Part shown: positions 7,861-26,761 of the stretch, in pieces
Layout of the letters: each line of letters opens with the position of its first letter
How positions within the stretch are numbered: the first letter of the stretch is position 1
DNA from: Microthrixaceae bacterium
Lineage (GTDB): Bacteria > Actinomycetota > Acidimicrobiia > Acidimicrobiales > Microtrichaceae
NCBI GenBank assembly: GCA_033813615.1
Contig: JAPXRJ010000001.1
Location: forward strand, 8,515 to 72,514
Reading direction: 5' to 3'
DNA length: 64,000 nt
Made by a program: the position numbers and the translations under genes
Notes under the pieces: generated by a model
What the model was told of the DNA's origin: nothing
Seen by the model: the letters and a program-made list of their open reading frames with translations, nothing else
Databases searched by the model: none

Positions 7861-8823
7861 TTGTCGAGGCCGTCGCCACCGACCGGCCGCTTCGCTCCGA
7901 GCCCGTCGGCGTCGCTGCACCTCGGCAACCTGCGGACCGCGCTGCTCGCCTGGGCTGCGGCGCGCAGCGTCGGAGGTCGGTTCCTGGTGCGCGTCGAGGA
8001 CCTGACGACCGGGTTCGACGGTCGGGTCGCCGCCGAGGTGGCCGCAGGTCAGCTGGCCGATCTCGACGCCCTCGGACTGACCCACGACGGCGACGTCGTT
8101 CGCCAGTCCGAACGTCGCGACCTCTACGACGACGCCATCGCTCGGTTGGTCGATGCCGGGCGCACCTACCCCTGCTTCTGCACGCGTCGCGAGATCCGCG
8201 AGGCGTCGTCCGCGCCCCACGGCCCGCACCCCGACGGGGCCTATCCAGGGACGTGCTCGACGTTGAGCAGATCCCGCGTCCGTGAGCTGCAGCGGGAGGG
8301 TCGTCGCCCGGCCCTGCGCTTGCGCGCCGACCGCGTCGAGGTGACGGCGACCGACGTGCTCGCCGGTCCGATGATCGCCGAGGTCGACGACCTGGTGCTG
8401 CGGCGGGCGGACGGGCAGGTGGCCTACAACCTGGCCGTCGTCGTCGACGACGCCGAACAGGGCGTGGGCCAGGTGGTCCGGGGCGACGACCTGTGGGAGA
8501 CCACTCCGCGTCACGTGCGGTTGCAGCAGCTGCTCGGGCTGGCGACTCCCGAGTACTTGCACGTGGCGCTCGTCGTCGGTCCCGACGGGAGCCGACTGGC
8601 CAAGCGCGACGGAGCGGTGACCCTCGGGGACCGGCTCGCCATGGGGGAGGACGCGGCGACGGTGATCGGGATGCTCGCGCACTCTGCCGGGTTGGCCGAG
8701 CGCGGCGAACGGCTCACCGCGGACGACGTGGCATCACGCTTCGACGTCGGGCGGTTGCGGCGCGAGCCGTGGGTGTTCGACGGTGGGCCGATGCGCGAGA
8801 CTCGTGGGCGTGACCCCCGCTGA
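7861..8823 (+). CDS. gluQ: tRNA glutamyl-Q(34) synthetase GluQRS
   Basis: RFAPSPS-LHLGN, CFCTR...YPGTC, RGDDL, RLAKRDG; no anticodon-binding domain. Confidence 0.85.
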   Translation: MSRPSPPTGRFAPSPSASLHLGNLRTALLAWAAARSVGGRFLVRVEDLTTGFDGRVAAEVAAGQLADLDALGLTHDGDVVRQSERRDLYDDAIARLVDAGRTYPCFCTRREIREASSAPHGPHPDGAYPGTCSTLSRSRVRELQREGRRPALRLRADRVEVTATDVLAGPMIAEVDDLVLRRADGQVAYNLAVVVDDAEQGVGQVVRGDDLWETTPRHVRLQQLLGLATPEYLHVALVVGPDGSRLAKRDGAVTLGDRLAMGEDAATVIGMLAHSAGLAERGERLTADDVASRFDVGRLRREPWVFDGGPMRETRGRDPR

Positions 8824-10384: not shown

Positions 10385-11414
10385 GACCTACGCCGGTGCC
10401 GGCGTGTCGATCGACGCAGGCGAGGACGCGGTCGATCGCATCAAGGGCCACGTCGCCTCCACCCGGCGCCCCGAGGTCCTGGGCGGCATCGGGGGGTTCG
10501 GCGGCCTGTTCTCCTTCGACACGTCGGGATACGACCAGCCGGTGCTCGTCTCGACCACCGACGGGGTGGGCACCAAGGCGCTGATCGCCACCGCGACCGG
10601 CCGCTATGACACGATCGGGCTGGACCTCGTCGCCATGTGCGTCGACGACCTGGTGTGCCAGGGCGCCGAGCCGCTGTTCTTCCTGGACTACATCTCGATC
10701 GGCAAGGTCGACCCCGACGTGATCGACCAGCTCGTCGCCGGCGTGGCCGAGGGCTGCCGCCAGGCCGGCTGCGCGCTCGTCGGCGGTGAGATGGCCGAGC
10801 ACGCCGGCGTCATGGAACCCGGCGAGTTCGACCTGGTCGGCTTCGCCGTCGGTGCCGTCGAGCGCTCCCGGATGCTCACCGGAGAGGCCGTGACCCCTGG
10901 CGACGTGCTGGTCGCGCTGCCGTCCCCCGGGCTGCGCTCCAACGGCTACACCCTGGCCCGCCGCCTGATGTTCGACGTGGCGGGTCGCTCGCTCGACGAT
11001 CCGGCGTGGGACGGACCCGACGCCCCGAGCGTCGCCGACGAGCTCCTCCGGCCGTCGGTGATCTACGCCCCAGCCGTCCGGGCGCTGCTCGCCGCGGTCC
11101 CGGTGCACGCCGTCGCCCACATCACCGGTGGCGGCCTGCCCGGAAACCTCAACCGGGTGATCGGCGACGCCGCCGACGCGGTGGTCGAGCCCTCGTCGTG
11201 GGAGCCGCCGCGGATCTTCGACGAGCTCCAGCGCATCGGCGACGTCGAGCGCGACGAGATGCGCCGCGTGTTCAACCTGGGTGTGGGAATGGTGGCCGCC
11301 GTGCCTGCGGATGCCGCGTCCACTGCGCTCGACGTGCTCGCCGGCGAGGGGTTGGCGGCCCGGATCATCGGCGAGGTGGTCCCCGGCGACGGCCAGGTGC
11401 GCTTCACCGATTGA
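10377..11414 (+). CDS. purM: Phosphoribosylformylglycinamidine cyclo-ligase
   Basis: YAGAGV, GGFGGLF, DGVGTK, GGEMAEH, HITGGG. Confidence 0.97.
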   Translation: MGETYAGAGVSIDAGEDAVDRIKGHVASTRRPEVLGGIGGFGGLFSFDTSGYDQPVLVSTTDGVGTKALIATATGRYDTIGLDLVAMCVDDLVCQGAEPLFFLDYISIGKVDPDVIDQLVAGVAEGCRQAGCALVGGEMAEHAGVMEPGEFDLVGFAVGAVERSRMLTGEAVTPGDVLVALPSPGLRSNGYTLARRLMFDVAGRSLDDPAWDGPDAPSVADELLRPSVIYAPAVRALLAAVPVHAVAHITGGGLPGNLNRVIGDAADAVVEPSSWEPPRIFDELQRIGDVERDEMRRVFNLGVGMVAAVPADAASTALDVLAGEGLAARIIGEVVPGDGQVRFTD

Positions 11415-11444
11415 GCCGCCGGGCCCTGCGGTACCGTCGGAGCG

Positions 11445-12590
11445 ATGACGGAGTTCACCCAGCCGGCGGCCCACGGAACGCTCTCGTCGTGGGACGACTA
11501 CCCGGTCCACCAGGCAGCCGAGACGGTCCGCCACGTGACGACGGGGGACCGGAACTTCTACGACCGCTACTACTTCAACTGCCATGCCAACGACGGATCC
11601 GCGTTCATGGTCTTCGGGCTCGGTCAGTACCCGAACCTGGCGGTGCAGGACGCGTTCGCGTGCGTGGTGAGCGGCGAGGACCACCGGGTGCTGCGGGCGT
11701 CGCGGGAGCTCGACGACCGGATGGACACCTCCGTCGGGCCGCTGCGGGTCGAGGTGATCCGGCCGCTGCACGAGCTGCGGATCGTGTGCGACCCCAACGA
11801 CCGGAGCGACCTGTCGCTGGACCTGCGCTGGGTGGGGTCCATGCCCGCGTTCGAGGAGCCGCGCCAGTACGTGCGTCGCCACGGCCGGACGCTGTTCGAC
11901 TCCATGCGCCTCGCTCAGACCGGCCGCTGGAGCGGGACGATCACCAGCGGCACCACGACCTTCGACGTCACCCCCGACTCGTGGTGGGGGACCCGCGACC
12001 GCAGCTGGGGCATCCGTCCCGTCGGTGAGGAGGAGCCCATGGGCATCCGCACCGAGGGCCAGATGCAGGGCATGTGGAACTACGCGCCGATGCAGTTCGA
12101 GGACCACTCGATCCTCTACATCTGCAACGAGCACGACGACGGCAGGCGCGAGCTCGAAGAGGCGGTGCGCATCTGGCACGACCCCGGACGGGCGCCCGAC
12201 TGGCTCGGCCGTCCCGAACACGACGCCGTGATCACCCCCGGCACCCGCCGCATCGAGTCCTCCACGCTGTCGTTCCCCGACGCACCGGGCGGTGCGATCG
12301 ACATCGCGGTCGCCCCGCTCATGGATTGCTGGTTGATGCTCGGCACGGGCTACGGCATCGAGGCCGACTGGCGCCACGGCATGTACCAGGGGCCGCTGGT
12401 GGTCCAGGGGGTGGAGATCGACTACCGGCGCGACTCGGACCGACTGTTCGGCCTGGTCGACCAGGTGGCCCGCTTCACGCAGTCGGGCGGGTCCGGCGAC
12501 GGGGCGGTCGGCTTCGGCCTGCACGAGTTCTTCTTCATCGGCGACTTCAGCCGCTACGGCCTCGTCGGCTGGGACCCGCTCCCGGCCTGA
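11445..12590 (+). CDS. Conserved actinobacterial hypothetical protein (DDYPVHQ...YDRYYF...RDRSWG family)
   Basis: Typical codon usage; probably leaderless (TACCGT 7 nt before ATG); function not assignable. Confidence 0.75.
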   Translation: MTEFTQPAAHGTLSSWDDYPVHQAAETVRHVTTGDRNFYDRYYFNCHANDGSAFMVFGLGQYPNLAVQDAFACVVSGEDHRVLRASRELDDRMDTSVGPLRVEVIRPLHELRIVCDPNDRSDLSLDLRWVGSMPAFEEPRQYVRRHGRTLFDSMRLAQTGRWSGTITSGTTTFDVTPDSWWGTRDRSWGIRPVGEEEPMGIRTEGQMQGMWNYAPMQFEDHSILYICNEHDDGRRELEEAVRIWHDPGRAPDWLGRPEHDAVITPGTRRIESSTLSFPDAPGGAIDIAVAPLMDCWLMLGTGYGIEADWRHGMYQGPLVVQGVEIDYRRDSDRLFGLVDQVARFTQSGGSGDGAVGFGLHEFFFIGDFSRYGLVGWDPLPA

Positions 12591-12643
12591 TCGATCGGTC
12601 CAGAACGTCGGCCGAACGGATCTCGTTGGGTAGGTTCGGCGCC

Positions 12644-13210
12644 ATGTCCGACCCTGCGCCCACCGCGAGCCCCGAGCTCGTCGCCCACCTGCTCGAGCAC
12701 TCCGTCAAGGAGGGTGACTTCACGCTGAAGTCGGGCCGCAAGAGCAGCTGGTTCATCGACTCCAAGCAGACCGCGTGCGACCCCGACGGCGTGCTGCTGA
12801 TGGCCCGGGCCGCCGCGGCGGTCATCGGCGATGACGCCACCGCCATCGGCGGGCTGACCGTCGGTGCCGATCCGGTCGCCTACGGAGTGGCCGCGGTGCT
12901 GGCGACGCAGGGCCGTCGGCTGCGCAGCTTCACGATCCGCAAGGAGGCCAAGGACCACGGCGTGACCGGCCGCCTCGCCGGGCCGCTGCGGGCCGGCGAC
13001 AGGGTCGTCATCACCGAGGACACCGTCACCCGGGGGACGTCGCTGTTCGAGGCGGTCGAGGTGGTGCGCGAGCTCGGAGCGGAGCCCGTGCTGATCATGC
13101 CGCTGGTCGACCGAGGCGGAACCTGCGCCGCCATGGCCGCAGAGGCCGGCATCGCGTATCGGCCGCTCGTGACCGCCCTCGACCTGGGCTTCGCCTACGA
13201 AGGACCCTGA
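12644..13210 (+). CDS. pyrE: Orotate phosphoribosyltransferase
   Basis: GDFTLKSG, RKEAKDHG, VITEDTVTRG PRPP loop. Confidence 0.92.
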   Translation: MSDPAPTASPELVAHLLEHSVKEGDFTLKSGRKSSWFIDSKQTACDPDGVLLMARAAAAVIGDDATAIGGLTVGADPVAYGVAAVLATQGRRLRSFTIRKEAKDHGVTGRLAGPLRAGDRVVITEDTVTRGTSLFEAVEVVRELGAEPVLIMPLVDRGGTCAAMAAEAGIAYRPLVTALDLGFAYEGP

Positions 13211-13263
13211 CCGGCCGACCCTTTCGGTGCACGTCGCGCACCAGCGGTAGCGTCGTGGGCCGT

Positions 13264-14664
<1,401 letters not shown>

Positions 14665-14745
14665 GGTAGCAAGAACGCTGTCCGCTGCGGTCGGGACCGA
14701 CATCGATCTCGTCTCGCTGCTCCGACGTGGCGTCACACGATCCGG

Positions 14746-14779
14746 AGAAGCAAGAAACCCCTGCAGAGCAGGGGCTTCT
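14746..14779 (-). terminator. Intrinsic terminator after tRNA cluster
   Basis: Minus strand AGAAGCCCCTGC-TCT-GCAGGGGTTTCT followed by TGCTTCT. Confidence 0.75.
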
Positions 14780-14783
14780 CGAG

Positions 14784-14856
14784 TGGTCGGGACCGGCGTC
14801 GATCCGGTGACCTACCGCTTTTCAGGCGGTCGCTCTGCCAACTGAGCTACCCGACC
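14784..14856 (-). tRNA. tRNA-Phe (GAA); CCA not encoded
   Basis: GGTCGGGTAGCTCAGTTGGCAGAGCG..., anticodon arm ACCGC-CTGAAAA-GCGGT. Confidence 0.95.
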
Positions 14857-14898
14857 GTTCCTCCGCCGACCACCCGGATGGACCGGGCAGCGGCGAAG

Positions 14899-14976
14899 TG
14901 GCGGTCCCGACGGGATTTGAACCCGCGACCTCCGGCTTGACAGGCCGGCGTGCACTCCAAACTGCACCACGGGACC
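14899..14976 (-). tRNA. tRNA-Asp (GTC); CCA encoded
   Basis: GGTCCCGTGGTGCAG...CCGGC-CTGTCAA-GCCGG...GGTTCAAATCC...GCCA. Confidence 0.96.
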
Positions 14977-15020
14977 ACGAACTTCGACTGCAACACCTGC
15001 AACTGCAACACCTGCGACTG

Positions 15021-15093
15021 CACCCCCAACGGGATTCGAACCCGTGTTACCTCCTTGAAAGGGAGGCGTCCTAGGCCACTGGACGATGGGGGC
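15021..15093 (-). tRNA. tRNA-Glu (TTC)
   Basis: GCCCCCATCGTCCAGTGGCCTAGGACG...CCTCC-CTTTCAA-GGAGG...GGTTCGAATCC. Confidence 0.96.
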
Positions 15094-15207
15094 TCCCCAT
15101 CCCCGTGGAGGGGTCGGGTCAACATAGCAGCAGCCGCGAGGGCCGCCAAAGGCGGATCCTCGGGTGGTGCGCTGCTCGGGTGGCTCGGCGCTCGGACGGC
15201 GCGCTGC

Positions 15208-16293
15208 TCAGGCGCCCGTCGACAGCCTGTCGACCTCGGTGGCTCCCAACGGTGTCGCGGCGCCGGGCGGGGCGAACGCCACCCAGCTCCGTCCGGCCGG
15301 TATCGCCAGGGGCGTGCCGTCGGTGGTGGTGAACGTGAACGGCTCTGCGGCCGCGGCTCGAGTCCAGCGCACCGCGGTGACCTGCCCGTCCCAGAGGACC
15401 AGCCCGTCGCCGCCGCCGACCGAGACGAGCTCGGGCTGGCGAACATCCCACGGTGCGTGTCGGTAGAGCGAGTCGACGACGAGGACCACATCGACGCCGA
15501 GCTGGCGGTCCGCGTCGTCGACGTGCGCTCGGCCGTGCGCCCGTCGGAGCCACTCGCCGCGCTCGTCGTCCCAGGTGAAGAGGACCTCCGTCGACGCCGA
15601 GAACCGGATGTGCACGCCCGCGACCGGGAGCCCGGGCGGTGTCACGTCGCTGGGACCGGCGTGTGCGAACGGCGTCCGCGCCGATCCCGAGCCGGTGGCG
15701 TGCTCGCGCACGCCGACGGTCGTCAGGAACAGGTTGTGCGGTGCCCGCAGGGCTCGGTCGCGGCGGAACACCTCCGATCCCCCGCTCGAGTCGGGCGTGT
15801 AGGTGACGAACGGCTCCTGGCTCGCCGCTTCCAGCGTGTGTCGGTTGGCGCCGGAGAAGGCGATGATCGGTTCGCCCAGGCTGGCGGCGAGGTCGAAGTC
15901 GGAGCTCCTCAACGAGCGCACCGGTCCGACTCGCTCGGCGTCCTGTGACTGGAACAGCGCCAGGCAGCGGGTGATGCCGCCCTCGACCAGCTCCTCGTAG
16001 ACGATGTCGGCGCGCTCGATCCCGCTGAAGGTCGTGATCCCGGGGTGCTGGTCGACCTTGACGCCGAGCACGGAGCGATCGTCGGCGGCGTCGACGGGGA
16101 GGCCGGTGAGCGGTGCGGTCGCCCCGGATGGCGCCGGGACGGTGCTGGACGTCGTGGTCGACGTCGTGGTCGTCGTGGCGGGTGGGTCATCCGATCGCCC
16201 GACCGCCCACACGGCCACGGCGCCCGCCGCGAGCGCCGCGAGCACGGCGAGCGCACCGGCGACTCGGGCCAGGCGTCGGTCCCGTGGTGTCAC
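15208..16293 (-). CDS. DUF3048 (YerB-like) membrane-anchored protein
   Basis: PLTGL, VKVD, ADIVYEELVEGGITR, GPVRS, RAPHNL. Confidence 0.85.
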   Translation of the reverse strand: MTPRDRRLARVAGALAVLAALAAGAVAVWAVGRSDDPPATTTTTSTTTSSTVPAPSGATAPLTGLPVDAADDRSVLGVKVDQHPGITTFSGIERADIVYEELVEGGITRCLALFQSQDAERVGPVRSLRSSDFDLAASLGEPIIAFSGANRHTLEAASQEPFVTYTPDSSGGSEVFRRDRALRAPHNLFLTTVGVREHATGSGSARTPFAHAGPSDVTPPGLPVAGVHIRFSASTEVLFTWDDERGEWLRRAHGRAHVDDADRQLGVDVVLVVDSLYRHAPWDVRQPELVSVGGGDGLVLWDGQVTAVRWTRAAAAEPFTFTTTDGTPLAIPAGRSWVAFAPPGAATPLGATEVDRLSTGA

Positions 16294-16324
16294 CGGGCGC
16301 CCTGCGTCGGTCCCGGGTCGGGTG

Positions 16325-16795
16325 TCACAGTCGCGACGAGCGGGCGGAGACGACGGCGTCGAGCAGGAAGCCGAGCACCTCGTAGGCCTGGTAGGTCGCT
16401 GCGTTGGTGTCGTCGACGGCGACCTCGTCGGCATCGTCGTCGATGTCGAGCACGGTGCCGAGCACGAGCCGCACGTCGTTGATCGACCGCATCCACGCGC
16501 CGATCTGGTCCTCGTCGAGGGTGGTTGCCTGGGAGGAGGCGATGAGGGCGTCGAGGCTGCTCAGCCGGTGCTCGATCAGCTCGGGCCGGGCGAGCGCGGT
16601 CCACCCCTCGTTGCGCTCGGTGTCGTCGCCGTAGGGCGGCGGGAACAGCCGCCGCAGGGCGGGGCTGTCGGTCTCCAGCAGCAGACCCTTGAGCTGCTCG
16701 CCCACGGATCGCAGCAGCTCGCGCTCGTTCGGTCCGAGGTCGACCACGTAGGAGCCGTCGGCGGCGGCACTGACGGGAGATCGGAACCGTGGCAT
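16325..16795 (-). CDS. DUF2017 family protein
   Basis: PALRRLFPP, AWMRSINDVRLVLG; usual neighbour of clpS in actinobacteria. Confidence 0.85.
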   Translation of the reverse strand: MPRFRSPVSAAADGSYVVDLGPNERELLRSVGEQLKGLLLETDSPALRRLFPPPYGDDTERNEGWTALARPELIEHRLSSLDALIASSQATTLDEDQIGAWMRSINDVRLVLGTVLDIDDDADEVAVDDTNAATYQAYEVLGFLLDAVVSARSSRL

Positions 16796-16799
16796 CCGC

Positions 16800-17090
16800 T
16801 CAGTCCTGCTGCATCGTGGCCCAGAGGCCGTGCTCGTGGAGTCGGAACACGTCGCGCTCGGCCTCGGAGCGGGGGCCGCTCGACACCACGGCCCTGCCCT
16901 CGTGGTGGACCTGCAGCATCAGGGTGGTCGCCTCGTCCTTGGAGTAGCCGAACAGCTTCTGGAGCACGAAGGTCACGTAGCTCATGAGGTTGATCGGGTC
17001 GTTCCAGACCAACACGACCCAGGGCGTGTCGATGTCGACGACGTCGGACAGGTCGGGTTCGACGACGCCGATCGGCGCGGGACTGGACAC
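16800..17090 (-). CDS. clpS: Clp protease adaptor ClpS
   Basis: [23 protein letters not shown]. Confidence 0.95.
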
Positions 17091-17099
17091 CCCCTGAGG

Positions 17100-18086
17100 C
17101 TACGCGTGCGAGCCGACACCGGCGGTCAGCCCTCCGGCGCCCGCTTCGCCAGGGCGCGTCGGGGGGAGGTCGCCGGGTGCGGAGAGGCCCAGGTGGAACC
17201 AGATCGTCGTGCCCAGCACGGCGGTGGCGCCTGCGATGTGGAGCGCGACGAGCCACGCAGGGATGCCGAGCTCGTACTGCGTGTAGCCGATCGCCCCCTG
17301 GGCCACGATCACCGCCAGCAGCGCGTACCCGCGGCGGGTCACGCCGACCGGGGCGCCACCCCGGGCCAGGCGGTACATCAGCACCACGACGACGGCCAGG
17401 AACAACCACATGTTGACGCTGTGGACCCGCACCACGTCGGGGAGGAACCAGTCGAAGCGCCGCGCCGCTGCGTCGCCGGCGTGGGGCCCCGATCCGGTCA
17501 CCGCGGGGCCGGTCGCCATCAGGCAGCACATCAGCACCACCGCAGCGCGGGACAGGACGAGGTCCGTGCGGGCGACGACCGGGCGTCGGGGGCCCTCGGG
17601 CTGACCGGCGCGCCACACGAGCACGACGGCGTCCGCGACCAGCAGCATCGACAGCACGAAGTGCCCCGCCACGGCCAGCGGGTGCAGGTCGACCAGGACG
17701 GTGATGCCGCCCAGGACGATCTGGCCGATCACGCCGGCGACGAGCCCCCACGACAACCACACGAGGTCGCTGCGGTAGGGCCGACGGCGCAGCGAACCGA
17801 GCACCGCGGCGACGACCGCGATCGACACCAGCCCGGTGAACAGGCGGTTCACCTGCTCGATCGTCTGGTTGGTGTCGCCGAACTCCAGGACCTTGTCCTC
17901 CGAGCAGTTGGGCCAGTCCTCGCAACCGAGACCGGAGCCCGAGAGGCGGACCGCGGCGCCGGTCACGACGATCGTGCACAGCAGCACCAGTGCCACCACG
18001 GCGATCGAGCGGTAGGTCCGCGGCGCGAACGTCAAGCGCTCCCGCTCCGGTGCGGCGGAGGACACGGGGGCATCTGGGTCGACCAC
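17100..18086 (-). CDS. ctaA: Haem A synthase (COX15/CtaA)
   Basis: GAAVRLSGSGLGCEDWPNC, IEQVNR, conserved His in TM helices. Confidence 0.92.
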   Translation of the reverse strand: MVDPDAPVSSAAPERERLTFAPRTYRSIAVVALVLLCTIVVTGAAVRLSGSGLGCEDWPNCSEDKVLEFGDTNQTIEQVNRLFTGLVSIAVVAAVLGSLRRRPYRSDLVWLSWGLVAGVIGQIVLGGITVLVDLHPLAVAGHFVLSMLLVADAVVLVWRAGQPEGPRRPVVARTDLVLSRAAVVLMCCLMATGPAVTGSGPHAGDAAARRFDWFLPDVVRVHSVNMWLFLAVVVVLMYRLARGGAPVGVTRRGYALLAVIVAQGAIGYTQYELGIPAWLVALHIAGATAVLGTTIWFHLGLSAPGDLPPTRPGEAGAGGLTAGVGSHA

Positions 18087-18223: not shown

Positions 18224-19141
18224 ATGGTCGCGCCGGCGCTCACCCCTCCGACCTCGGTCGGTGCCAAGTTGGGCTCCAAGGTGGCCGCCTACGTGGCGCT
18301 GACCAAGCCGCGGATCATCGAGCTGCTGCTCGTGACGACCGTGCCCACCATGATCGTCGCCGAGCAGGGCGTCCCGTCGCTGTGGCTGATGGCGGCCACG
18401 GTGATCGGCGGCACGCTCGCCGCCGGTGGCGCCAACGCCATCAACATGTACGTCGACCGCGACATCGATGCCGTGATGGAGCGCACCCAGGACCGTCCGC
18501 TGGTCACCGGTGCGGTCTCGCCCCGCAGCGCCCTGGTCTTCGCCGTGTCGATCGAGGTGCTGGCCTTCTTCTTCCTCTGGCAGGTCGTCAACCTGCTGTC
18601 GGCCGTCCTGGCGGTCAGCGCCTGCCTGTTCTACGTGTTCGTGTACACCCTGTGGCTCAAGCGGAGCTCCAGCCAGAACATCGTCATCGGCGGCGCCGCC
18701 GGTGCCGTTCCGGTCCTGGTGGGCTGGTCGGCGGTCACGAACAGCCTGTCGGTGTCTGCATTCGTGCTCTTCGGGGTCATCTTCTTCTGGACGCCGCCGC
18801 ACTTCTGGGCGCTCGCCATCAAGTACAAGGACGACTACGCCCGAGCGGAGGTGCCGATGCTGCCCTCGGTGGCCTCGCACCGCTCCACGGCGAACCAGAT
18901 CCTGGCCTACACGGTCGTCGTGTGGGCGCTCACCCTCGTCTTCGGCGCCACCGCCGGGCTGGGCCTCCTCTACTGGGCTGCTGCGGTCGTGCTCGGTGCC
19001 GTGTTCACGTGGATGACCGTGGAGCTTCGTCGCACCGAGTCGGCAGCCAACGCCATTCGCACGTTCACGTTCTCGATCACCTACATCACCCTGCTCTTCG
19101 GAGCGATGGCGGTCGACGTGATCGTGCGGAACGGCTGGTGA
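18224..19141 (+). CDS. ctaB: Protohaem IX farnesyltransferase (haem O synthase)
   Basis: LTKPRIIELLL, DRDIDAVMERT..RP, WTPPHFWAL. Confidence 0.96.
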   Translation: MVAPALTPPTSVGAKLGSKVAAYVALTKPRIIELLLVTTVPTMIVAEQGVPSLWLMAATVIGGTLAAGGANAINMYVDRDIDAVMERTQDRPLVTGAVSPRSALVFAVSIEVLAFFFLWQVVNLLSAVLAVSACLFYVFVYTLWLKRSSSQNIVIGGAAGAVPVLVGWSAVTNSLSVSAFVLFGVIFFWTPPHFWALAIKYKDDYARAEVPMLPSVASHRSTANQILAYTVVVWALTLVFGATAGLGLLYWAAAVVLGAVFTWMTVELRRTESAANAIRTFTFSITYITLLFGAMAVDVIVRNGW

Positions 19142-19242: not shown

Positions 19243-19312
19243 CAGCAGCCAGAGCCAGCAGCCAGAGCAAGAGCCAGCAGCCAGAGCAAGAGCCAGCCAG
19301 AGACAGCAGGGA
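19243..19312 (+). repeat. T-free purine/C-rich imperfect repeats (AGCAGCCAGAGC...) in the oxidase operon leader
   Basis: AGCAGCCAGAGC occurs three times, with AAGAGCC links. Confidence 0.7.
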
Positions 19313-19335: not shown

Positions 19336-20892
19336 ATGGCACTCACTGAGACCAGGCCCGACGCGGAGGATGTGGCCGCGGGCGACGCCGCCCGACCGGA
19401 CCCAGGCTCCGCCGAACGCCTGCTGGGCACCGGTGACCACGTCGCCATCGGGCGCCTGTACATCGGCTTCTCCTTGGCGCTGTCCGCCGTGGCGCTCACC
19501 CTCTGGGCCGTCGCCGGGCTCGACGCGCTGACCGACAACGGCTTCCTCGGCGCTCGTACCGCCCAGCTCGCCGCCAGCGCCCAGACCGCGCTGCTGTTCC
19601 TCGGCGTGGTGCCGTTGCTCCTGGGCATCGCCATCGCCGTCGTGCCGCTGCAGCTGGCGTCGCCGGCCATCGCCTTCCCCCGCGCTGCGGCCCTGTCGTT
19701 CTGGACCTGGCTCGTCAGCGCCGGGATCTTCGTGACGAGCATCGCCATCGACGGCGGTGTGCTGGGCGCCGACACGACCGCCGCCCAGCTCGGCAACGTG
19801 TCGCTCGGCGCGGTGCTGGTGTCGCTCGGCCTCGGCGCCGTCTGCGTGGCCACCACCGTGGTCGTGCACCGACCGCTCGGCATGCGCCTGGCCTGGGTGC
19901 CGGGTCTGTCGTGGGCGTCGCTCGTGGGCGCTGCACTCTGGATCGTCACCCTCGGTGCGGTGTGCGCGCACATCCTCCTCGGCGAGGTGGCCGGCTCGGA
20001 AGCCGGAGCGCTGGCCACCGCCTTCCTCGAGGGCCTCGTCTGGGTCTTCCGGGGTCCGGCGGTCTTCGCGTTCGCCATCCCGGTGCTCGGCATCGCCGTC
20101 GACGTCGTGGCTGCTGCCACGGGCCGCCGCTTCGCCAACACCGACGCGCTGCAGCTGATCATCGGTCTCTACGCCATCCTGGCCTTCGGTGCGTGGGCGC
20201 AGCTGCCGAGCTCGCTCAACACCGCGATGTGGACGCTGTTCGCCGCGGCGATCACCGTCCCCGTGCTCGGACTCCTCGGTGCGCTCGGCGACGCCTTCCG
20301 CCGCGGCTCGGTCAGCACCGGCCCCGCGCTGATCCTGTCGGTGCTGTCGGTCCTGTTGCTCGTCGGTGCGGTCATCACGGGTTGGGTCCAAGCCCTGTCG
20401 CTCGCAGGTCAGGGCACCCTGTTCGGCGCCTCGCCCGCCACGCTCGCTTCGGCCCAGACCGCCTTCGTGGCCGGTGCCGCCCTCGCCGGAGGGATCGCCG
20501 CGTCGCTGCACTGGTCGCCACTGCTGTGGGGCGGGCCGGGCAACTCGGTCGAGTCCCGTCTGACCGTGCCGCTCGTCGTCCTCGGTGGCGGGTTGCTCGG
20601 CACGGCCGTGCTGGTCCAGGCCGTCGTGCAGCTCGATGGTGAGACCACGGCGTTCCAGCTCTTCGGTCTTCTGACCGCCGTCGGCGCCGGACTGCTGGCG
20701 CTCGGGGCGCTCAGCGCCCTCATCGCTGCGGTGCGCAGCAGCGGCCAGGAGCCCGACCCGGTCGAGGGCCTCACCCTCGAGTGGGCATCGTCCACGCCGG
20801 CGACCGGAGGGGTCGTGCGCGACGACCTCGCCCGGGTGATCTCGCCGTACCCGCTGCTCGACGCCCGTGAGGGCACGGAGGAGAGCGACTGA
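19336..20892 (+). CDS. Degenerate cytochrome c oxidase subunit I paralogue lacking metal ligands
   Basis: Colinear with the COX1 at 23600 (DH..IG.LY, AFPR..ALSFW, LEW..S.P) with ligand His residues replaced. Confidence 0.82.
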   Translation: MALTETRPDAEDVAAGDAARPDPGSAERLLGTGDHVAIGRLYIGFSLALSAVALTLWAVAGLDALTDNGFLGARTAQLAASAQTALLFLGVVPLLLGIAIAVVPLQLASPAIAFPRAAALSFWTWLVSAGIFVTSIAIDGGVLGADTTAAQLGNVSLGAVLVSLGLGAVCVATTVVVHRPLGMRLAWVPGLSWASLVGAALWIVTLGAVCAHILLGEVAGSEAGALATAFLEGLVWVFRGPAVFAFAIPVLGIAVDVVAAATGRRFANTDALQLIIGLYAILAFGAWAQLPSSLNTAMWTLFAAAITVPVLGLLGALGDAFRRGSVSTGPALILSVLSVLLLVGAVITGWVQALSLAGQGTLFGASPATLASAQTAFVAGAALAGGIAASLHWSPLLWGGPGNSVESRLTVPLVVLGGGLLGTAVLVQAVVQLDGETTAFQLFGLLTAVGAGLLALGALSALIAAVRSSGQEPDPVEGLTLEWASSTPATGGVVRDDLARVISPYPLLDAREGTEESD

Positions 20893-21461
20893 TGGTTGCC
20901 GCCCTGCCCGCACCGAGCCAGCCCCGTCGTCGGGAGCTGCTGTTCGGCACGGCGTTCGCCACCGCCGGGGTCGTCGCCCTCATGGCGACGCTGATCGGCT
21001 ACTACCTCGCCGCCCGCAACGCCGGCGGCGTCGACTGGTTGGCCGACAACACGATCCCGCTCACGCAGCCGAACATGCAGGCGCTGACGCTGGGCATGTC
21101 GATGGTGACCATGCAGTGGGCCGTGCACTCGATCGCCCGCGACGACCGTCCCCACACCTACCTGGCGCTCGGCGTCACGCTGCTGCTCGGCATGGCGTTC
21201 GTGAACCAGTCGATCTTCCTGTACAAGCAGGCCGGCGTGGTCCTCGACCAGGCCGAGGCCCCGCTCTTCTACGCCGTGACCGGCGGCAGCCTCGCCATGG
21301 TGGTCGCCGGGATCATCTACCTGCTGGTGATGGGCTTCAGGGTCCTCGGCGGTCAGTTCTCCAGTCGTCAGCCGGACGGGATCGCCGCGGCCGCAGTGCT
21401 CTGGTACGCCAGCTGCGCTGTGTACGCCGTGGTCTGGGTCGCCGTCTACATCATGAAGTGA
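20892..21461 (+). CDS. Degenerate cytochrome c oxidase subunit III paralogue
   Basis: S.VTMQWAV, FYAVTG, LWY align with COX3 S.LTMVLAV, FYTLTGFH, YWH. Confidence 0.8.
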   Translation: MVAALPAPSQPRRRELLFGTAFATAGVVALMATLIGYYLAARNAGGVDWLADNTIPLTQPNMQALTLGMSMVTMQWAVHSIARDDRPHTYLALGVTLLLGMAFVNQSIFLYKQAGVVLDQAEAPLFYAVTGGSLAMVVAGIIYLLVMGFRVLGGQFSSRQPDGIAAAAVLWYASCAVYAVVWVAVYIMK

Positions 21462-21468
21462 GCACTTG

Positions 21469-22368
21469 ATGATCACTCGGGGTTCCAAGTTCTTCTATGC
21501 CGCTGCGGTCGTCGGCTTCGTGTCGGCGATCGTGTACGGGTTCCTCTCGGGAGCGGCCGCGCACAGCGGCGTGCTCGGTGTGTTCTCCGACGGCGACGTG
21601 GTCAACTCCATCGTCGGTCCGCTGACCTTCGGATGGAAGGGCTGGGTCGGCGACCACGTCGGCTACAGCGTCCTCATGGGCTTCGCCGCGGTGATGGCGG
21701 CGCTCGGCGGGTTCACCACGGCGTTCCGCGACGGAAGCCCCGACGTGCTCGTCGAGATGGAGGGCGGTGACCCGGAGACGGCGGCCAACCCGTCGGTCCT
21801 CAGCCCGGTCGGTCTCAGCTACTGGCCGTTGATCGGCGCCTTCGGCGTCGGGATCGCGACGGTCGGCCTGGCGGTGGACACCGTCCTGTTCTGGGTCGGG
21901 ATCGTCCTGCTGGCCATCGTGGTCGTCTCCTGGACGGTGCGGGCCTGGGCGGAGAGCGCCACCGGCGACCAGGGCGTCAACCGTGGCCTGCGCCACGACC
22001 TGATGGACCCGCTCGAGGTCCCGGTGCTGGCCGTGCTCACGCTGGCCGTCATCGTCCTGTGCGTGTCGCGCCTGCTGCTCGCTCTGCCGCAGTCGGCGTC
22101 GGTGTACGTGATCATCGGTGCCGCGATCGTGGTGTTCGCCCTGGCGTTCGTGCTGGCCGGGCGTCCCGAGCTCAAGCGCTCGCTGGTGGTCGCGGTCCTG
22201 CTCGTGGGCGGCGTCGTGATCATCGGTGCCGGCATCGTCGGCGGCATCGCCGGCGAGCAGCACGGCGGCGAGGAAGAGCACGGTGCGGGCGCCAGCCCGA
22301 CCGTCGTGGTCGATTCGGCACCCGGTCCGGCAGCGGTGGATACTCTCACCGTGCCGACCGGTGAGTGA
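21469..22368 (+). CDS. Oxidase-associated membrane protein, CtaF-like (actinobacterial subunit 4) N-terminal half
   Basis: Multi-TM; SYWPL motif resembling CtaF and the COX1 C-terminal extension. Confidence 0.55.
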   Translation: MITRGSKFFYAAAVVGFVSAIVYGFLSGAAAHSGVLGVFSDGDVVNSIVGPLTFGWKGWVGDHVGYSVLMGFAAVMAALGGFTTAFRDGSPDVLVEMEGGDPETAANPSVLSPVGLSYWPLIGAFGVGIATVGLAVDTVLFWVGIVLLAIVVVSWTVRAWAESATGDQGVNRGLRHDLMDPLEVPVLAVLTLAVIVLCVSRLLLALPQSASVYVIIGAAIVVFALAFVLAGRPELKRSLVVAVLLVGGVVIIGAGIVGGIAGEQHGGEEEHGAGASPTVVVDSAPGPAAVDTLTVPTGE

Positions 22369-22378
22369 GAGGTTGGGA

Positions 22379-23566
22379 ATGCGGAACAAGCGCAATGCGG
22401 CGATCGCAGGGGTCGTCTCGTTCGTCCTCATGGCGGTGATGCTCTGGCTGATCATCCGCAACATCGGTGATGCTGAGGGGTACCCGCTCAACACCCTCGC
22501 TCCCGCCGGTCGCCAGAACTGGGAGATCTTCGGCCTGGTCAAGCCGGTGTTCGCCGTCGCCGGCATCGTGTTCCTGGTGGTCGAGGCCGGTCTCATCTGG
22601 ATGGCCGTCCGCTTCAAGCGGAACAAGTCCGACGTCGACGGCGTCGACGAGCCCACGCAGACCCACGGCAACACGCCGCTCGAGATCGGCTGGACCGTGC
22701 TGCCGGCGCTGATGCTCGCCGTGCTCGCCGTGTTCAACGTCCAGACCCTGCTGCGCATCGAGGAGAAGACCGATCCGATCGAGGTTCGCGTCATCGGACA
22801 GCAGTGGTGGTGGGAGTACCGCTACGACGTCGACCGCGACGGCACCGTCGACATCATCACCGCCACGCAGATCGTCGTGCCCGTCGGCCGTGACGTGGAG
22901 GTGAAGATCCAGTCCAACGACGTCATCCACTCGTTCTGGATCCCGGCGATCAACGGCAAGAAGGACGCGGTGCCGGGCCGCACGCACTCGCTGATCATGA
23001 CCGCCGACAAGCCCGGCATCTACCAGGGCCAGTGCACCGAGTTCTGCGGTCTGTCCCACGGCGTGATGCGCATGGAGCTGAAGGCGCTGCCGGAGGCGGA
23101 GTACGACGAGTGGGTCGCGGCGATGACCAAGCCGCCGGAGCAGCCGACCGACCCCAAGGCGCTCGCCGGCCAGGAGCTGTTCGTCAGCCAGTGCGCCCGC
23201 TGCCACCAGATCAACGGGCTGCGACCCGACTCCACCGCGCCGTTCAGCTACGCCGCCCAGCCGGACCCGGAATACGGAGAGTCGGTGGACTCCACGCTGT
23301 CGTCCAAGAACGCGCCGAACCTGACGCACCTGATGATGCGCCAGACCTTCGCCGGGTCGTTGCTGCCCCTCTACGAGGGCAAGGCCGCGGAGTCCGTCTC
23401 CGTCGTACCCGACGGCGTGCCCGCCACCTCCGACCTCAAGGACTGGTTGCGTGATCCGGAGGCGATCAAGCCGATGGACCCCGACAACAACCAGGGGATG
23501 CCGAACCTCCAGCTCACGGAGGACCAGATCGATCAGCTCGTCGCCTACCTGGTGACGTTGAAGTAG
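22379..23566 (+). CDS. ctaC: Cytochrome c oxidase subunit II with fused cytochrome c (caa3 type)
   Basis: QWWWEYRY, DVIHSFW, CuA CTEFCGLSHGVM, haem c CARCH...MP. Confidence 0.96.
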   Translation: MRNKRNAAIAGVVSFVLMAVMLWLIIRNIGDAEGYPLNTLAPAGRQNWEIFGLVKPVFAVAGIVFLVVEAGLIWMAVRFKRNKSDVDGVDEPTQTHGNTPLEIGWTVLPALMLAVLAVFNVQTLLRIEEKTDPIEVRVIGQQWWWEYRYDVDRDGTVDIITATQIVVPVGRDVEVKIQSNDVIHSFWIPAINGKKDAVPGRTHSLIMTADKPGIYQGQCTEFCGLSHGVMRMELKALPEAEYDEWVAAMTKPPEQPTDPKALAGQELFVSQCARCHQINGLRPDSTAPFSYAAQPDPEYGESVDSTLSSKNAPNLTHLMMRQTFAGSLLPLYEGKAAESVSVVPDGVPATSDLKDWLRDPEAIKPMDPDNNQGMPNLQLTEDQIDQLVAYLVTLK

Positions 23567-23599: not shown

Positions 23600-25690
23600 A
23601 TGGCACTTGTCGAAGAACACGCGCCGCTCGAGCTCGACGCCGGAGCAGCGACGGTGACCAAGCCGCTGGGCGTGTTCTCGCGGCCGACGTCCACGCACGG
23701 CTGGACCTCGTGGCTGACCACCGTCGATCACAAGAAGATCGGCATCATGTACGGCGCCGCGTCGTTCTTCTTCCTGCTCGTCGGCGGGTTCGAAGCGCTG
23801 CTGATCCGCACCCAGCTCGCCGTCCCCGGCTCGAAGTTCCTCTCTGCGGACCTCTACAACCAGGTCTTCACGATGCACGGCGTCACCATGGTGTTCCTGG
23901 TGGTCATGCCGATGGCCTCCGCGTTCGCCAACTACCTGCTGCCGCTGCAGATCGGGGCGAGGGACGTCTCGTTCCCCCGCATGAACGCCCTGTCGTTGTG
24001 GGTCTGGCTCTCCGGCGCGATCTTCTTCAACACCTCGTGGTTGCTCGGTGGCGGCGCCAACGGCGGTTGGTTCATGTACGCGCCGAACTCGGGCGTGACG
24101 TTCTCGCCCGGGCACGGCATCGACTTCTACGCCGTCGGCCTGATCATCATGGGCATCGGCTCGACCGTGTCGGCCATCAACCTGACCGTCACCGTGCTCA
24201 ACATGCGGGCGCCGGGCATGACCCTCATGAAGATGCCGGTCTTCACCTGGATGACCTTCGTGGTGCAGGTGCTGCTCGTGTTCGCCCTGCCGGTCATCAC
24301 CGTGGCGCTGTTCCTGCTGATGTTCGATCGGCTCTTCGGGGCGACGTTCTTCGACGCGTCGAAGGGCGGTGACCCGTTCCTGTGGGAGAACCTGTTCTGG
24401 ATCTTCGGGCACCCCGAGGTGTACATCATGATCCTGCCGAGCTTCGGCATCGCGTCGGAGGTGATCCCGACGTTCTCCCGCAAGCCGATCTTCGGCTATC
24501 CGTTCATGATCGGCTCCGGCATCGCCATCGGGTTCATGGGCTGGGGCGTCTGGGCGCACCACATGTTCGCATCGGGCATCGGCACGCTGTCGGTGCTGGC
24601 GTTCTCCCTGGCCACGATGTTCATCGCCGTGCCGACCGGCGTGAAGATCCTCAACTGGCTGGCGACGATGTACGGCGGCCGGCTGCGGTTCACGACCGCC
24701 ATGCTGTTCGCGATCGGCCTCGTCGGCATGTTCACCATCGGCGGTCTGTCGGGCGTGACCCACGCCTTCGCCCCCGCCGACACGCAGCAGACCGACACGT
24801 ACTACATCGTTGCGCACTTCCACTACGTGCTCTTCGGCGGTGCCCTGCTGGGGCTCTTCTCCGGCATGTACTTCTGGTGGCCGAAGATCTTCGGCTTCTT
24901 CCTGGGCGAGAAGATGGGCAAGTGGAACTTCTGGGTGATGCTCGTCGGCTTCAACCTGACGTTCGGGCCCATGCACATCCTGGGCATGCAGGGGATGATG
25001 CGTCGCACCTACACCTACACCGAGGGTCAGGGCTTCAACCTCTGGAACATGGTGGCCACCATCGGTGCGTTCACGATCGCCGTGTCGCTGATCCTCTTCA
25101 TGGTCAACATCGCTCTGAGCTACCGGAAGCACAAGCGCAACCCGGTCGACCCCGGACCGGACCCCTGGGACGCTCGGTCGCTCGAGTGGATGATCCCGTC
25201 GCCCGCCCCGGAGCACAACTTCGACGAGCTGCCGCTGGTCGAGGAGACCGACGAGTTCTGGCACCGCAAGTACGGCCACGACGACGACGGCCGGCTCGTG
25301 CGCATCGCGGCCACCGAGGACGTCGTCCAGAAGGGTGACGCCACCGACGTGCACCTGCCGTCGCCGTCGTACTGGCCGCTCGTCATGGCGGCCGGGTTCC
25401 CGCTCGTCGGCTACGGCCTGATCTTCAACTACTGGTGGCTGGTGCCCGGCGCGCTGCTGATCGTGCTCGGCATCTTCGGCTGGGTCTTCGAGCCGTCGAC
25501 CGACCCGGACGGCGGCCACCACCACGACGACGACCAGCCTTCCGACGACCGTCCCGATGCCGCCGAGGCGACGGCCGGCGAGTCGACCGACGCGGACGAC
25601 GACGCATCGTCGCTCGGCTCGGACGAGGTCGCGGATGCACCCACCCCCGAGCCGGCCATGGCCAGCACCGAGGAGACGACCGTTGGCTGA
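23600..25690 (+). CDS. ctaD: Cytochrome c oxidase subunit I (A1 type)
   Basis: FTMHG, GHPEVY, WAHH, HFHY, MMRR all intact. Confidence 0.98.
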   Translation: MALVEEHAPLELDAGAATVTKPLGVFSRPTSTHGWTSWLTTVDHKKIGIMYGAASFFFLLVGGFEALLIRTQLAVPGSKFLSADLYNQVFTMHGVTMVFLVVMPMASAFANYLLPLQIGARDVSFPRMNALSLWVWLSGAIFFNTSWLLGGGANGGWFMYAPNSGVTFSPGHGIDFYAVGLIIMGIGSTVSAINLTVTVLNMRAPGMTLMKMPVFTWMTFVVQVLLVFALPVITVALFLLMFDRLFGATFFDASKGGDPFLWENLFWIFGHPEVYIMILPSFGIASEVIPTFSRKPIFGYPFMIGSGIAIGFMGWGVWAHHMFASGIGTLSVLAFSLATMFIAVPTGVKILNWLATMYGGRLRFTTAMLFAIGLVGMFTIGGLSGVTHAFAPADTQQTDTYYIVAHFHYVLFGGALLGLFSGMYFWWPKIFGFFLGEKMGKWNFWVMLVGFNLTFGPMHILGMQGMMRRTYTYTEGQGFNLWNMVATIGAFTIAVSLILFMVNIALSYRKHKRNPVDPGPDPWDARSLEWMIPSPAPEHNFDELPLVEETDEFWHRKYGHDDDGRLVRIAATEDVVQKGDATDVHLPSPSYWPLVMAAGFPLVGYGLIFNYWWLVPGALLIVLGIFGWVFEPSTDPDGGHHHDDDQPSDDRPDAAEATAGESTDADDDASSLGSDEVADAPTPEPAMASTEETTVG

Positions 25691-26312
25691 CATCTCCCTC
25701 GAACCGGTCGAGGACATCGAGTTCCCCGACGACATCCACCAGACGTCCACCGGCGTCTCCAACGCCAAGTTGGCGATGTGGACCTACCTCGCGTCGGACT
25801 GCCTGCTCTTCGGCGGCCTGATCTCCACCTACCTGCTCTACAAGAACCGACCCGGCAGCATCCCGGGTCTGGCCGGGTCGCCGCTCAAGGCCTCGGAGCT
25901 GTTCAACATCCCGTTCACATCGATGACGAGCTTCATCCTGCTGATGAGCTCGCTGACGATGGTGCTGGCCGTGAACTCGATCATGAGCGGCGACCACAAG
26001 CGCATGCGGCTCTGGCTGACGAGCACCTGCATCCTCGGCGGGCTGTTCCTCGCCGGCCAGATCTACGAGTTCACCGAGTTCGTCCGCGAAGGCCTCGGCT
26101 ACACCTCGAACGTGTCTGCCTCCGCGTTCTACACCCTGACCGGGTTCCACGGTGCGCACGTCGCCATCGGCATCATCATGTTGTTGAGCGCCGTCGGCTA
26201 TTCCATGCGCAAGCAGATGCACGCCGAGGCCGTCGAGGTCCTGGGTCTGTACTGGCACTTCGTCGACATCGTCTGGGTCGTGATCTTCGCGATCGTCTAC
26301 CTGATCCCCTGA
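25683..26312 (+). CDS. ctaE: Cytochrome c oxidase subunit III
   Basis: TTG start; FYTLTGFHGAHV, YWHFVDIVW. Confidence 0.95.
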   Translation: MADISLEPVEDIEFPDDIHQTSTGVSNAKLAMWTYLASDCLLFGGLISTYLLYKNRPGSIPGLAGSPLKASELFNIPFTSMTSFILLMSSLTMVLAVNSIMSGDHKRMRLWLTSTCILGGLFLAGQIYEFTEFVREGLGYTSNVSASAFYTLTGFHGAHVAIGIIMLLSAVGYSMRKQMHAEAVEVLGLYWHFVDIVWVVIFAIVYLIP

Positions 26313-26338: not shown

Positions 26339-26761
26339 GTGAGCACCACGGTGCAGGAACTCGACGACGACTCCCCGGCGCACCCGGGCGAGCACCACGA
26401 CCACGGCCCGAGCAACGGGACGTACTACACGATCTTCTGGATCCTCGTCGCCATCACCGCGCTCGAGGTCTCCACGTACTTCTGGTCGTCGTGGTTCGGC
26501 GACGGCTCGCACTACCCGGCGGTCGTGCTGCTGGTGGTCATGATGGTGGTCAAGTTCATCCTGATCGCCTCCTTCTTCATGCACCTGCGCTTCGACTCGA
26601 AGTTGCTGGGGCGGATCTTCTACTTCGGCCTGGCCGTCGCCATCATCGTGTACATGGCCGCCCTCGCCACGATGAACATCTTCACCGACAACGGCAACCC
26701 GTGGTTCAACGATCCGCCGCCGGCGGTGACGACTACCACGGTCGCCGCGGCCGGCGGCTGA
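26339..26761 (+). CDS. Cytochrome c oxidase subunit IV (caa3/COX4_pro type)
   Basis: ITALEV, KF.LIA.FFMHLRFD. Confidence 0.88.
   Translation: MSTTVQELDDDSPAHPGEHHDHGPSNGTYYTIFWILVAITALEVSTYFWSSWFGDGSHYPAVVLLVVMMVVKFILIASFFMHLRFDSKLLGRIFYFGLAVAIIVYMAALATMNIFTDNGNPWFNDPPPAVTTTTVAAAGG

Follow-up and report, generated by a model that had tools for sequence, protein, structure and literature searches.

Three genes at the head of an intact caa3 oxidase operon, in the window analysed here (the whole 64,000-nucleotide stretch from a Microthrixaceae bacterium), encode a maintained and catalytically dead oxidase core, made up of a pseudo-COX1, a pseudo-COX3 and a CtaF-like fusion that we call gene 3. 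Judging from sequence, and with our confidence about evenly divided, we read the three as a structural adaptor that would be tied to the working caa3 oxidase, probably in a supercomplex that includes the cytochrome bc complex.

The subunit I of a haem-copper oxidase (HCO) is defined by six invariant histidines, and NO reductases and other catalytic HCO families use the same six for their binuclear center. Pseudo-COX1 (19336..20892, forward strand) is an uninterrupted frame of 518 aa with 12 TM helices; ligands for haem a, haem a3 and CuB are all absent, as are the D- and K-channel residues. Residue columns were read from an alignment with intact CtaD and orthologs, using what we take to be the bovine numbering. 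The six His ligands are replaced as H61>A, H240>G, H290>Q, H291>L, H376>Q and H378>A; the cross-linked Tyr is gone from its column (Y244>F); the propionate Arg pair R438/R439 reads G/E; and the channels have D91>A and E242>A on the D side and K319>L on the K side. The first-pass annotation had read all of these ligand losses, those of the six His, the Tyr and the MRR arginines, in an unbroken 518-aa frame, and the alignment agrees with it on every one. It had also raised the possibility that the His ligands might be recovered at shifted positions, but the whole protein has only 4 His (35, 178, 212 and 392), and since none of them falls in a ligand column, six ligands cannot be regained by shifting the alignment. 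Not one of the 70 unique family members or of the 130 scorable representatives has more than one CuB His; no member has the binuclear-site ligand set, so the family falls outside the NO reductases and other catalytic HCOs as well.

The fold is nevertheless that of subunit I. Pseudo-COX1 scores 48.1 bits against Pfam COX1 (PF00115), above the cut-off of 34.8, and 71 bits against NCBIfam CtaD, far below the cut-off of 671, with 24% identity to CtaD. The AF2 model has 12 long helices with pLDDT 90.2 and pTM 0.92, and it matches COX1 structures with a Foldseek TM of ~0.8 and a VIA Z of ~36. The distribution of conservation within the window's clade, clade B, differs from that of true COX1, in which helices VIII-X are among the best conserved: here helices I-VII, the IV-V loop and the C-tail score 0.37-0.55, and helices VIII-XII 0.27-0.31. 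With the helices assigned to the subunit III and subunit II faces as we presume them to be, this pattern fits a protein that has kept its subunit III face and lost its subunit II face.

The second gene, pseudo-COX3 (P0002; 20892..21461, forward strand, 189 aa), starts within the stop of the first (TGATG). The two His of FHGxH have become S and M, YWH reads LWY, and the acidic residue of helix I is V; intact CtaE has the FHGxH/YWH His in 49/49 and the helix-I acid in 48/49, which confirms the earlier observation that this gene too had shed its histidines. It scores 41.1 bits against the COX3 family PF00510 (cut-off 23.8). The pseudo-COX3 profile scores 131 bits on aa3-type CtaE versus at most 93 on caa3 CtaE, making the aa3 type its closest among the intact relatives scored.

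Gene 3 (P0003; 21469..22368, forward strand, 299 aa, with the ATG at 21469 chosen by the starts of its homologs) joins an N-terminal half resembling full-length CtaF to a 3-TM domain, and ends in a short His/Glu stub in the place where the sister clade, clade A, has a type-1 blue-copper domain. A family scan of the single protein gives no Cyt_c_ox_IV hit, and a weak PF12270 match appears in 6 of 46 family members; the family profile aligns positions 4-131 to solved CtaF with E = 7 × 10−6, so that the original CtaF-like call stands, at the profile level only. In intact aa3 loci ctaF is a full-length gene of its own, and gene 3 matches it. For the 3-TM half the match (E = 10−24) is a TM-cupredoxin whose gene follows ctaG in caa3 operons of other orders. 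By these matches, gene 3 combines CtaF with a 3-helix domain found in the caa3 operons of those orders. The blue-copper domain is found in 20 of the 52 loci with a complete C-terminus, all in clade A; it has the His-Cys-His-Met ligand set of auracyanin and amicyanin, and is matched to blue-copper proteins both by sequence (E = 3.5 × 10−10) and by model.

Downstream, as the first-pass annotation had stated, the caa3 operon continues intact on the forward strand, with ctaC (22379..23566; subunit II with the CuA motif and a fused cytochrome c, as in the caa3 type), ctaD (23600..25690; a subunit I of the A1 type that has every ligand and, fused at its C-terminus, a CtaF-like hairpin at 587-633), ctaE (25683..26312; subunit III) and caa3 subunit IV (COX4_pro, 26339..26761). 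No intact COX1 other than that ctaD was found in this genome, which is 90% complete. Directly upstream of pseudo-COX1 lies a ctaB-like haem O synthase gene (18224..19141, forward), and beyond it a divergently oriented ctaA-like haem A synthase gene (17100..18086, reverse), both named from their translations. The bc genes of this genome, which adjoin nuo genes on another contig, encode a split cytochrome b6-like pair where a single long QcrB might have been expected, along with a dihaem c and a Rieske protein. RNA-library contigs lie over parts of pseudo-COX1 in run X8 (four pieces with 0-1 differences at a depth of ~3-4), and a 356-nt contig in X6 lies over part of pseudo-COX3; as these are contigs only, from 4 of the 19 listed runs and with no silent control, we do not count them as expression evidence.

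In trees, the cofactor-less group is a single clade (100) on long branches, placed with aa3-type CtaD (SH-aLRT 94, 98/95). This placement disfavors descent from the adjacent caa3 CtaD, though an AU test on 34 rows, with 11 of 45 left out, does not reject it (p = 0.09). The module's likely ancestor is a second, aa3-type ctaD-ctaE-ctaF operon, and not the neighboring caa3 genes. Clade A retains the low-spin haem His pair in 33 of 37 members and never the CuB site; clade B has lost nearly all cofactor ligands. Haem- and copper-ligand states agree in 48 of 52 loci after exclusion of 26 truncated or duplicate loci, but these reduce to 3 independent pairs and p = 1, so a correlated loss is not supported. 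In our reading of alignment A2, clade A does not have the Arg/Asp/His/Gln motif that we take to be the bo3-type quinol site. The history we would propose is that the caa3 operon gained at its head an aa3-type ctaB-ctaC-ctaD-ctaE-ctaF operon, which then lost ctaC and the CuB site and whose ctaF was fused with the 3-TM/blue-copper gene of the caa3 operon; the outcome in clade A would have been a haem and blue-copper module unable to reduce O2, from which clade B would later have shed the copper domain and the haem ligands as well.

The first-pass annotation had taken the module to be maintained and catalytically dead, as opposed to a decaying pseudogene, and had pointed to conservation, synteny and dN/dS as the places to look; orthologs occur across the order, and the closest pair of pseudo-COX1 genes has an NG86 dN/dS of 0.006/0.085 (=0.07), far from neutral, next to 0.004/0.077 for CtaD and 0.008/0.100 for CtaC. 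The NG86 medians over 28 pairs are 0.29 for pseudo-COX1, 0.28 for CtaC and 0.20 for CtaD, and the YN00 median for pseudo-COX1 is 0.05 for the 7 of 28 pairs that are computable. Among 121 Acidimicrobiales genomes, gene 3 is found in 87 and caa3 CtaD in 85, every one of which has gene 3 (85/85, or 84/84 without the unpublished genome G291); 34 have neither. The three core subunits are retained together and in the same order across loci. Pseudo-COX1 and caa3 CtaD also diverge together over 47 loci (Spearman 0.81), but co-occurrence and co-divergence may reflect one vertically inherited operon, with kin being non-independent. The score range of pseudo-COX3 is reached by 0 of 106 genomes of the class's other orders (11 loci inspected); those orders have caa3 without the module, so it is not universally needed. 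Some carriers (L052, L056-L058) have an intact aa3-type oxidase elsewhere in addition to the module.

A ligand-less COX1 is also found in Solirubrobacterales, paired with a CuA-less COX2. A single origin with the Acidimicrobiales module is rejected (AU p = 0.012), and on that phylogenetic evidence this one arose separately. The two lineages are alike in having lost all CuB ligands, with His290>Gln in both, in their long open frames, in an intact oxidase elsewhere in the genome, and in a place next to ctaA/ctaB, the Solirubrobacterales pair lying immediately ahead of ctaA-ctaB in the single contig read throughout. They differ in that the Solirubrobacterales pair keeps a dead subunit II and in genome G585 lies outside the operon of the live oxidase. 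A second, independent case suggests that the bare scaffold itself is selectable.

Among known systems, one of the nearest to the module is the actinobacterial aa3 core CtaD-CtaE-CtaF in the III2IV2 supercomplexes of M. smegmatis and C. glutamicum: the best solved profile matches are 6hwh and 6adq (355-359 bits), the fold is the same, and there too subunit III is divided between CtaE and a CtaF that is separate and full-length. Unlike that core, the module has no haem a3/CuB site in any member and no subunit II of its own, its CtaF is fused to a 3-TM domain with or without blue copper, and it sits within the operon of another, intact oxidase. It shares the COX1 and COX3 folds with the caa3-type A1 oxidase (Thermus 2yev), and the two share an operon and co-occur strictly in the order; the caa3 CtaD, however, has all ligands and the fused hairpin, whereas the dead copy groups with the aa3 type. 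Membrane-tethered blue-copper carriers (auracyanin, amicyanin, plastocyanin) resemble the C-terminal domain of clade A gene 3, which differs in being fused to CtaF.

In the structural adaptor that we favor, pseudo-COX1, pseudo-COX3 and the CtaF half of gene 3 would still pack as a subunit I/III core, the 3-TM tail of gene 3 would tether this dead core to caa3, and the pseudo-COX3/CtaF face would contact the bc complex as mycobacterial CtaE and CtaF do. PMC8361435 gives CtaE, CtaF and QcrB as the main III-IV contacts in M. smegmatis. A role as structural partner had already been put forward in the first-pass annotation, and it is plausible; the aa3-type ancestry, the make-up of gene 3 and the ligands kept in clade A go beyond that annotation. 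The bc genes of this genome are of the split cytochrome b6-like type, which mycobacterial QcrB is not, so docking of the mycobacterial kind may not apply here. For the function, the closest analogy is ActF of alternative complex III, which PMC7439408 describes as a paralog of the catalytic membrane subunit that lacks the substrate pocket and is retained in a respiratory complex. ActF differs in having an unrelated fold and in being one subunit where the module is a three-subunit core, and a search of this genome for an alternative complex III as partner found no NrfD-family gene. A wider and more tentative proposal, which we regard as possible at best, is that Acidimicrobiales rebuilt a second oxidase, with one low-spin haem and a tethered blue copper and no O2 site, into an electron relay bridging bc to caa3, that this was stripped to a cofactor-free adaptor here, and that the same stripping in Solirubrobacterales would reflect a general non-catalytic scaffold job in Actinomycetota.

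An alternative that we consider rather unlikely, and that still fares best among the rivals, is that the module serves caa3 as a dedicated, transient assembly factor, with the empty COX1 as a placeholder or as a station for handing over haem A or copper beside CtaB and CtaA. In the window, and in 6 of the 7 loci checked, the module immediately follows ctaB and ctaA, and in the one contig read throughout the Solirubrobacterales pair immediately precedes them; intact aa3 operons also adjoin ctaB (L078, L149), however, so this position may be inherited. Strict co-occurrence with caa3 in the order and the haem ligands and copper domain retained in clade A would suit such a role, and a cupredoxin-like fold can occur in copper chaperones, according to PMC9145763. 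Against this, the clade A copper site is a type-1 set of the auracyanin/amicyanin kind, and the haem and copper ligands that a hand-over would need are gone from the window's proteins. CtaG and Surf1 are both encoded in this genome, so we reject the module as a replacement for either; Surf1 is present in 4 of 5 carriers tested and was not found in 5 genomes without the Acidimicrobiales module, including the Solirubrobacterales carrier.

Improbable, in our estimation, is that the dead core makes up one half of an asymmetric oxidase dimer, entrenched for the stability of caa3 with no bc contact and no new function. In favor of it, a complete I/III/IV-like core is retained, and a spacer would be expected to diverge as pseudo-COX1 has done, at about twice the rate of CtaD (mean distance 0.65 vs 0.31) with a composition drifted toward Ala/Leu/Val/Gly; the 3-TM/cupredoxin fusion and the strongly conserved clade A ligands point instead to a selected function, at least ancestrally. 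The first-pass annotation had also offered an ion conduit, and a proton or ion path or regulated leak through the empty subunit I is very doubtful: the pore-bearing architecture is kept, small residues replace bulky ones, and the former H240 position or a neighboring one often holds an Arg (0.97 in clade A, 0.78 in the window's family), but D91, E242 and K319 are lost, 8 of the 12 helix cores have no D, E, K, R or H, and a comparison of conservation among clades finds no new membrane-embedded ionizable residue common to all. That the three genes are a decaying pseudogene cluster, as 24% identity and long branches might imply, is refuted by the absence of in-frame stops in any match, dN/dS well under 1, a GC3 of 0.94-0.96 like that of intact genes, at least 150 clusters at 50% identity with synteny across many families, and the order-wide co-occurrence.

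The full-text literature searched, which lies largely outside subscription journals, contains no description of the ligand-less COX1 family or of the Solirubrobacterales pair; HCO classification tables may list the sequences. In databases the family goes under the names "cytochrome c oxidase subunit 1" or "cbb3-type cytochrome c oxidase subunit I", which can inflate oxidase counts and inferences of oxygen affinity for such genomes. What has come to light is a large conserved subunit I family without the six His, with living intermediates that have two haem sites left, one, or none. If the structural role is true, these bacteria would have a respiratory complex of an architecture not yet described, and the series of intermediates would be a natural experiment on the non-catalytic job of the oxidase scaffold.

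In the window, genes resembling ctaA and ctaB precede three ORFs, which are followed by the intact caa3 operon ctaC-ctaD-ctaE-ctaIV. The first ORF, pseudo-COX1 (19336-20892), exceeds the cut-off of the Pfam COX1 family, shares 24% identity with the neighboring CtaD, and is predicted as a 12-helix COX1 (pLDDT 90) matching COX1 structures at TM about 0.8 and Z about 36. The first-pass annotation called it ligand-less from a motif list, and the list is correct. In the alignment all six His ligands are replaced, as are the Arg pair and, in bovine numbering, Tyr244, Asp91, Glu242 and Lys319. No His is recovered at a shifted position, the protein having four, all off the ligand columns. Pseudo-COX3 (20892-21461) is COX3-like and lacks the conserved COX3 histidines, as had also been claimed. 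Gene 3 (21469-22368) consists of a CtaF-like part and three C-terminal helices. Within the trio, the start of one gene overlaps the stop of the preceding one. The 194-bp gap from ctaB to the pseudo-COX1 gene contains a short purine-rich tandem repeat (8 AGCCAG units, 19243-19297). Elsewhere, at 14950-15100, between a malic-enzyme-like and a DUF-like gene, shadow translations pointed to candidate tRNA genes.

That the trio is both dead and maintained is nearly certain. Pseudo-COX1 is open in 31 of 31 loci cut at presumed orthologues and in 7 further loci of the order, a search of 41 genomes gave no match with internal stops, and the order pseudo-COX1, pseudo-COX3, gene 3, ctaC, ctaD is conserved wherever the contig permitted, with one or two additional ORFs ahead of ctaC at loci L041, L044 and L046. 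A thioredoxin-like gene (CxxC, ResA/TlpA-like by eye) lies between gene 3 and ctaC at L041:9726-10448 and L044:5228-5833, an insertion seen in two families. Among 28 pairs from eight genomes, median NG86 dN/dS is 0.29, 0.21 and 0.22 for pseudo-COX1, pseudo-COX3 and gene 3, well below 1 and like that of the intact neighbors CtaC (0.28) and CtaD (0.20), with NG86 dS underestimated because GC3 is near 0.95. The closest pair gives 0.07 for pseudo-COX1, and YN00 gives 0.04-0.05 for the trio in the computable pairs (7, 17 and 13 of 28). A profile search finds at least 150 clusters of the family at 50% identity, and none of the 130 scorable ones (20 were set aside for gaps) has more than one CuB His.

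Named relatives are Acidimicrobiales. In a sample of 121 genomes of that order, gene 3 is found in 87, caa3 CtaD (E<=1e-200) in 85 and neither in 34; every genome with caa3 CtaD has gene 3 (85/85, or 84/84 without the unpublished G291). One of the two carriers beyond the 85, G035, has a ctaD split by a frameshift, and all five gene-3-free genomes examined lack caa3 CtaD and encode an intact oxidase of the aa3 type. In the class sample, the pseudo-COX3 score range is reached by 38 of the 45 genomes of the order and by none of the 106 from other orders. The top outside matches among 301 genomes sampled across the phylum are CtaE genes (up to 153 bits), and the four inspected retain YWH. Related genomes do not count as independent in any of these samples.

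The gene 3 family profile spans the whole of the solved CtaF of Corynebacterium and Mycobacterium (E 7e-6), and its C-terminal helices match the TM-cupredoxin (E 1e-24) encoded behind ctaG in the caa3 operon of other orders. In one clade the C-terminus is a type-1 copper domain with His-Cys-His-Met; L043, L071, L075 and L076 have a cupredoxin-like tail without that set, and in the window the domain is reduced to a His/Glu stub. In other Acidimicrobiia orders, the operon ends with ctaG and the 3-TM/blue-copper gene (L061:9590-10453, L064:8779-9944, L068:8411-9588), plus a small cupredoxin lipoprotein-like gene in L064 and L068; these cupredoxins probably act either in tethered electron transfer or as copper chaperones. 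An ESM Atlas match to 21469-22368 leads to a 246-member cluster commonest in Chloroflexota (Cyt_c_ox_IV 23%, cupredoxin 72%; structural match weak, TM 0.32), possibly a parallel CtaF-cupredoxin fusion.

In trees, pseudo-COX1 groups with the aa3-type CtaD, the second CtaD found in Acidimicrobiia (SH-aLRT 94; 98 and 95), and not with the caa3 CtaD next to it, although the AU test does not reject descent from that neighbor (p=0.09). Two independent signs agree with the aa3 origin. The pseudo-COX3 profile scores 131 bits against aa3-type CtaE versus at most 93 against caa3 CtaE, and at intact aa3 loci ctaF is a full-length gene of its own (ctaB-ctaC-ctaD-ctaE-ctaF in L078), where caa3 CtaD has only a fused CtaF-like hairpin. 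The probable history is that an aa3 operon shed both ctaC and the O2 site and became joined, via ctaF, to a gene of the caa3 operon.

All pseudo-COX1s fall into one clade, which splits into two branches. Clade A has the motif FGRP[ED]xY, and among its 37 unique sequences the low-spin haem pair H61/H378 is kept in 33, H376 in 24 and CuB His in none. Its members (e.g., L039:1649-3289) share a new conserved Arg in the D91 column and another in the H240 column, many carry His in place of R439, and three His on the cytoplasmic side (0.76-0.91 conserved) might make up a new site. In clade B, which includes the window, the pair survives in 3 of 33, the earliest-branching members. Among the 52 loci whose gene 3 is complete, the haem pair and the copper site are both present in 19 and both missing in 29, and 4 have just one of them; with 3 independent pairs, this co-loss is not statistically significant. 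In clade B, conservation is higher in helices I-VII, the IV-V loop and the C-tail than in helices VIII-XII, true COX1 having VIII-X among its most conserved; given the helix contacts of known structures, this fits retained subunit III contacts and lost subunit II contacts.

Ligand loss also occurred in a family assigned to Solirubrobacterales by database names. Genome G585 encodes a 559-aa COX1 with zero ligands, preceded by a COX2 without CuA cysteines and followed by ctaA-ctaB (pair at L151/L152:6524-9216, G585:C32; further loci L153-L172). CuB His and CuA Cys are absent from all 20 best-scoring loci, one family, and the next 10 by score, from sister families, have the intact orthologue. The dead copies cluster with those intact loci (support 96), and the AU test rejects their sharing one origin with the Acidimicrobiales family (p=0.012). 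His290 has mostly become Gln in both lineages.

Since no cofactor can bind in the window's lineage, the role there must be non-redox. The joint retention of three core subunits, the start/stop overlap, the strict co-occurrence with caa3 and the fusion with a domain from the caa3 operon suggest that the unit is stable and tethered to caa3. CtaE, CtaF and QcrB carry the main III-IV contacts in M. smegmatis (PMC8361435), with the same CtaE/CtaF split in C. glutamicum (preprint 10.1101/2021.06.16.448340). Given those contacts and the trio's features, our best reading of the mechanism, to which we give an even chance, is a dead aa3 body retained as a putative docking adaptor, although the bc complex here is of the split cytochrome b6-like type and caa3 operates without the module in other orders. 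The bc genes of L081 (G000:C47, about 8200-17000) comprise a dihaem c, Rieske, a split cytochrome b6-like pair and a 2x[4Fe-4S] ferredoxin-like gene, with nuoA/B/C-like genes following directly. An assembly factor would suit the ctaA/ctaB adjacency seen in both ligand-less lineages, but CtaG and Surf1 are already present, and we think this role unlikely. An entrenched asymmetric dimer seems improbable, an ion conduit more doubtful still, and decay is hardly credible beside the open frames, the CtaC/CtaD-like dN/dS and the order-wide gene order.

A full-text literature search covering mainly open-access papers found no description of a ligand-less COX1 family, nor do the portions consulted of PMC8239418, PMC9145763, PMC13741234, PMC7719681 and PMC5040959 mention one; this oxidase core family is apparently undescribed. 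ActF of alternative complex III is similar in being a non-catalytic paralogue subunit (PMC7439408). The trio is real and conserved. Pseudo-COX1 shares the fold of the haem-copper oxidases but fails the ligand test that defines them, and is therefore not to be filed as an oxidase.
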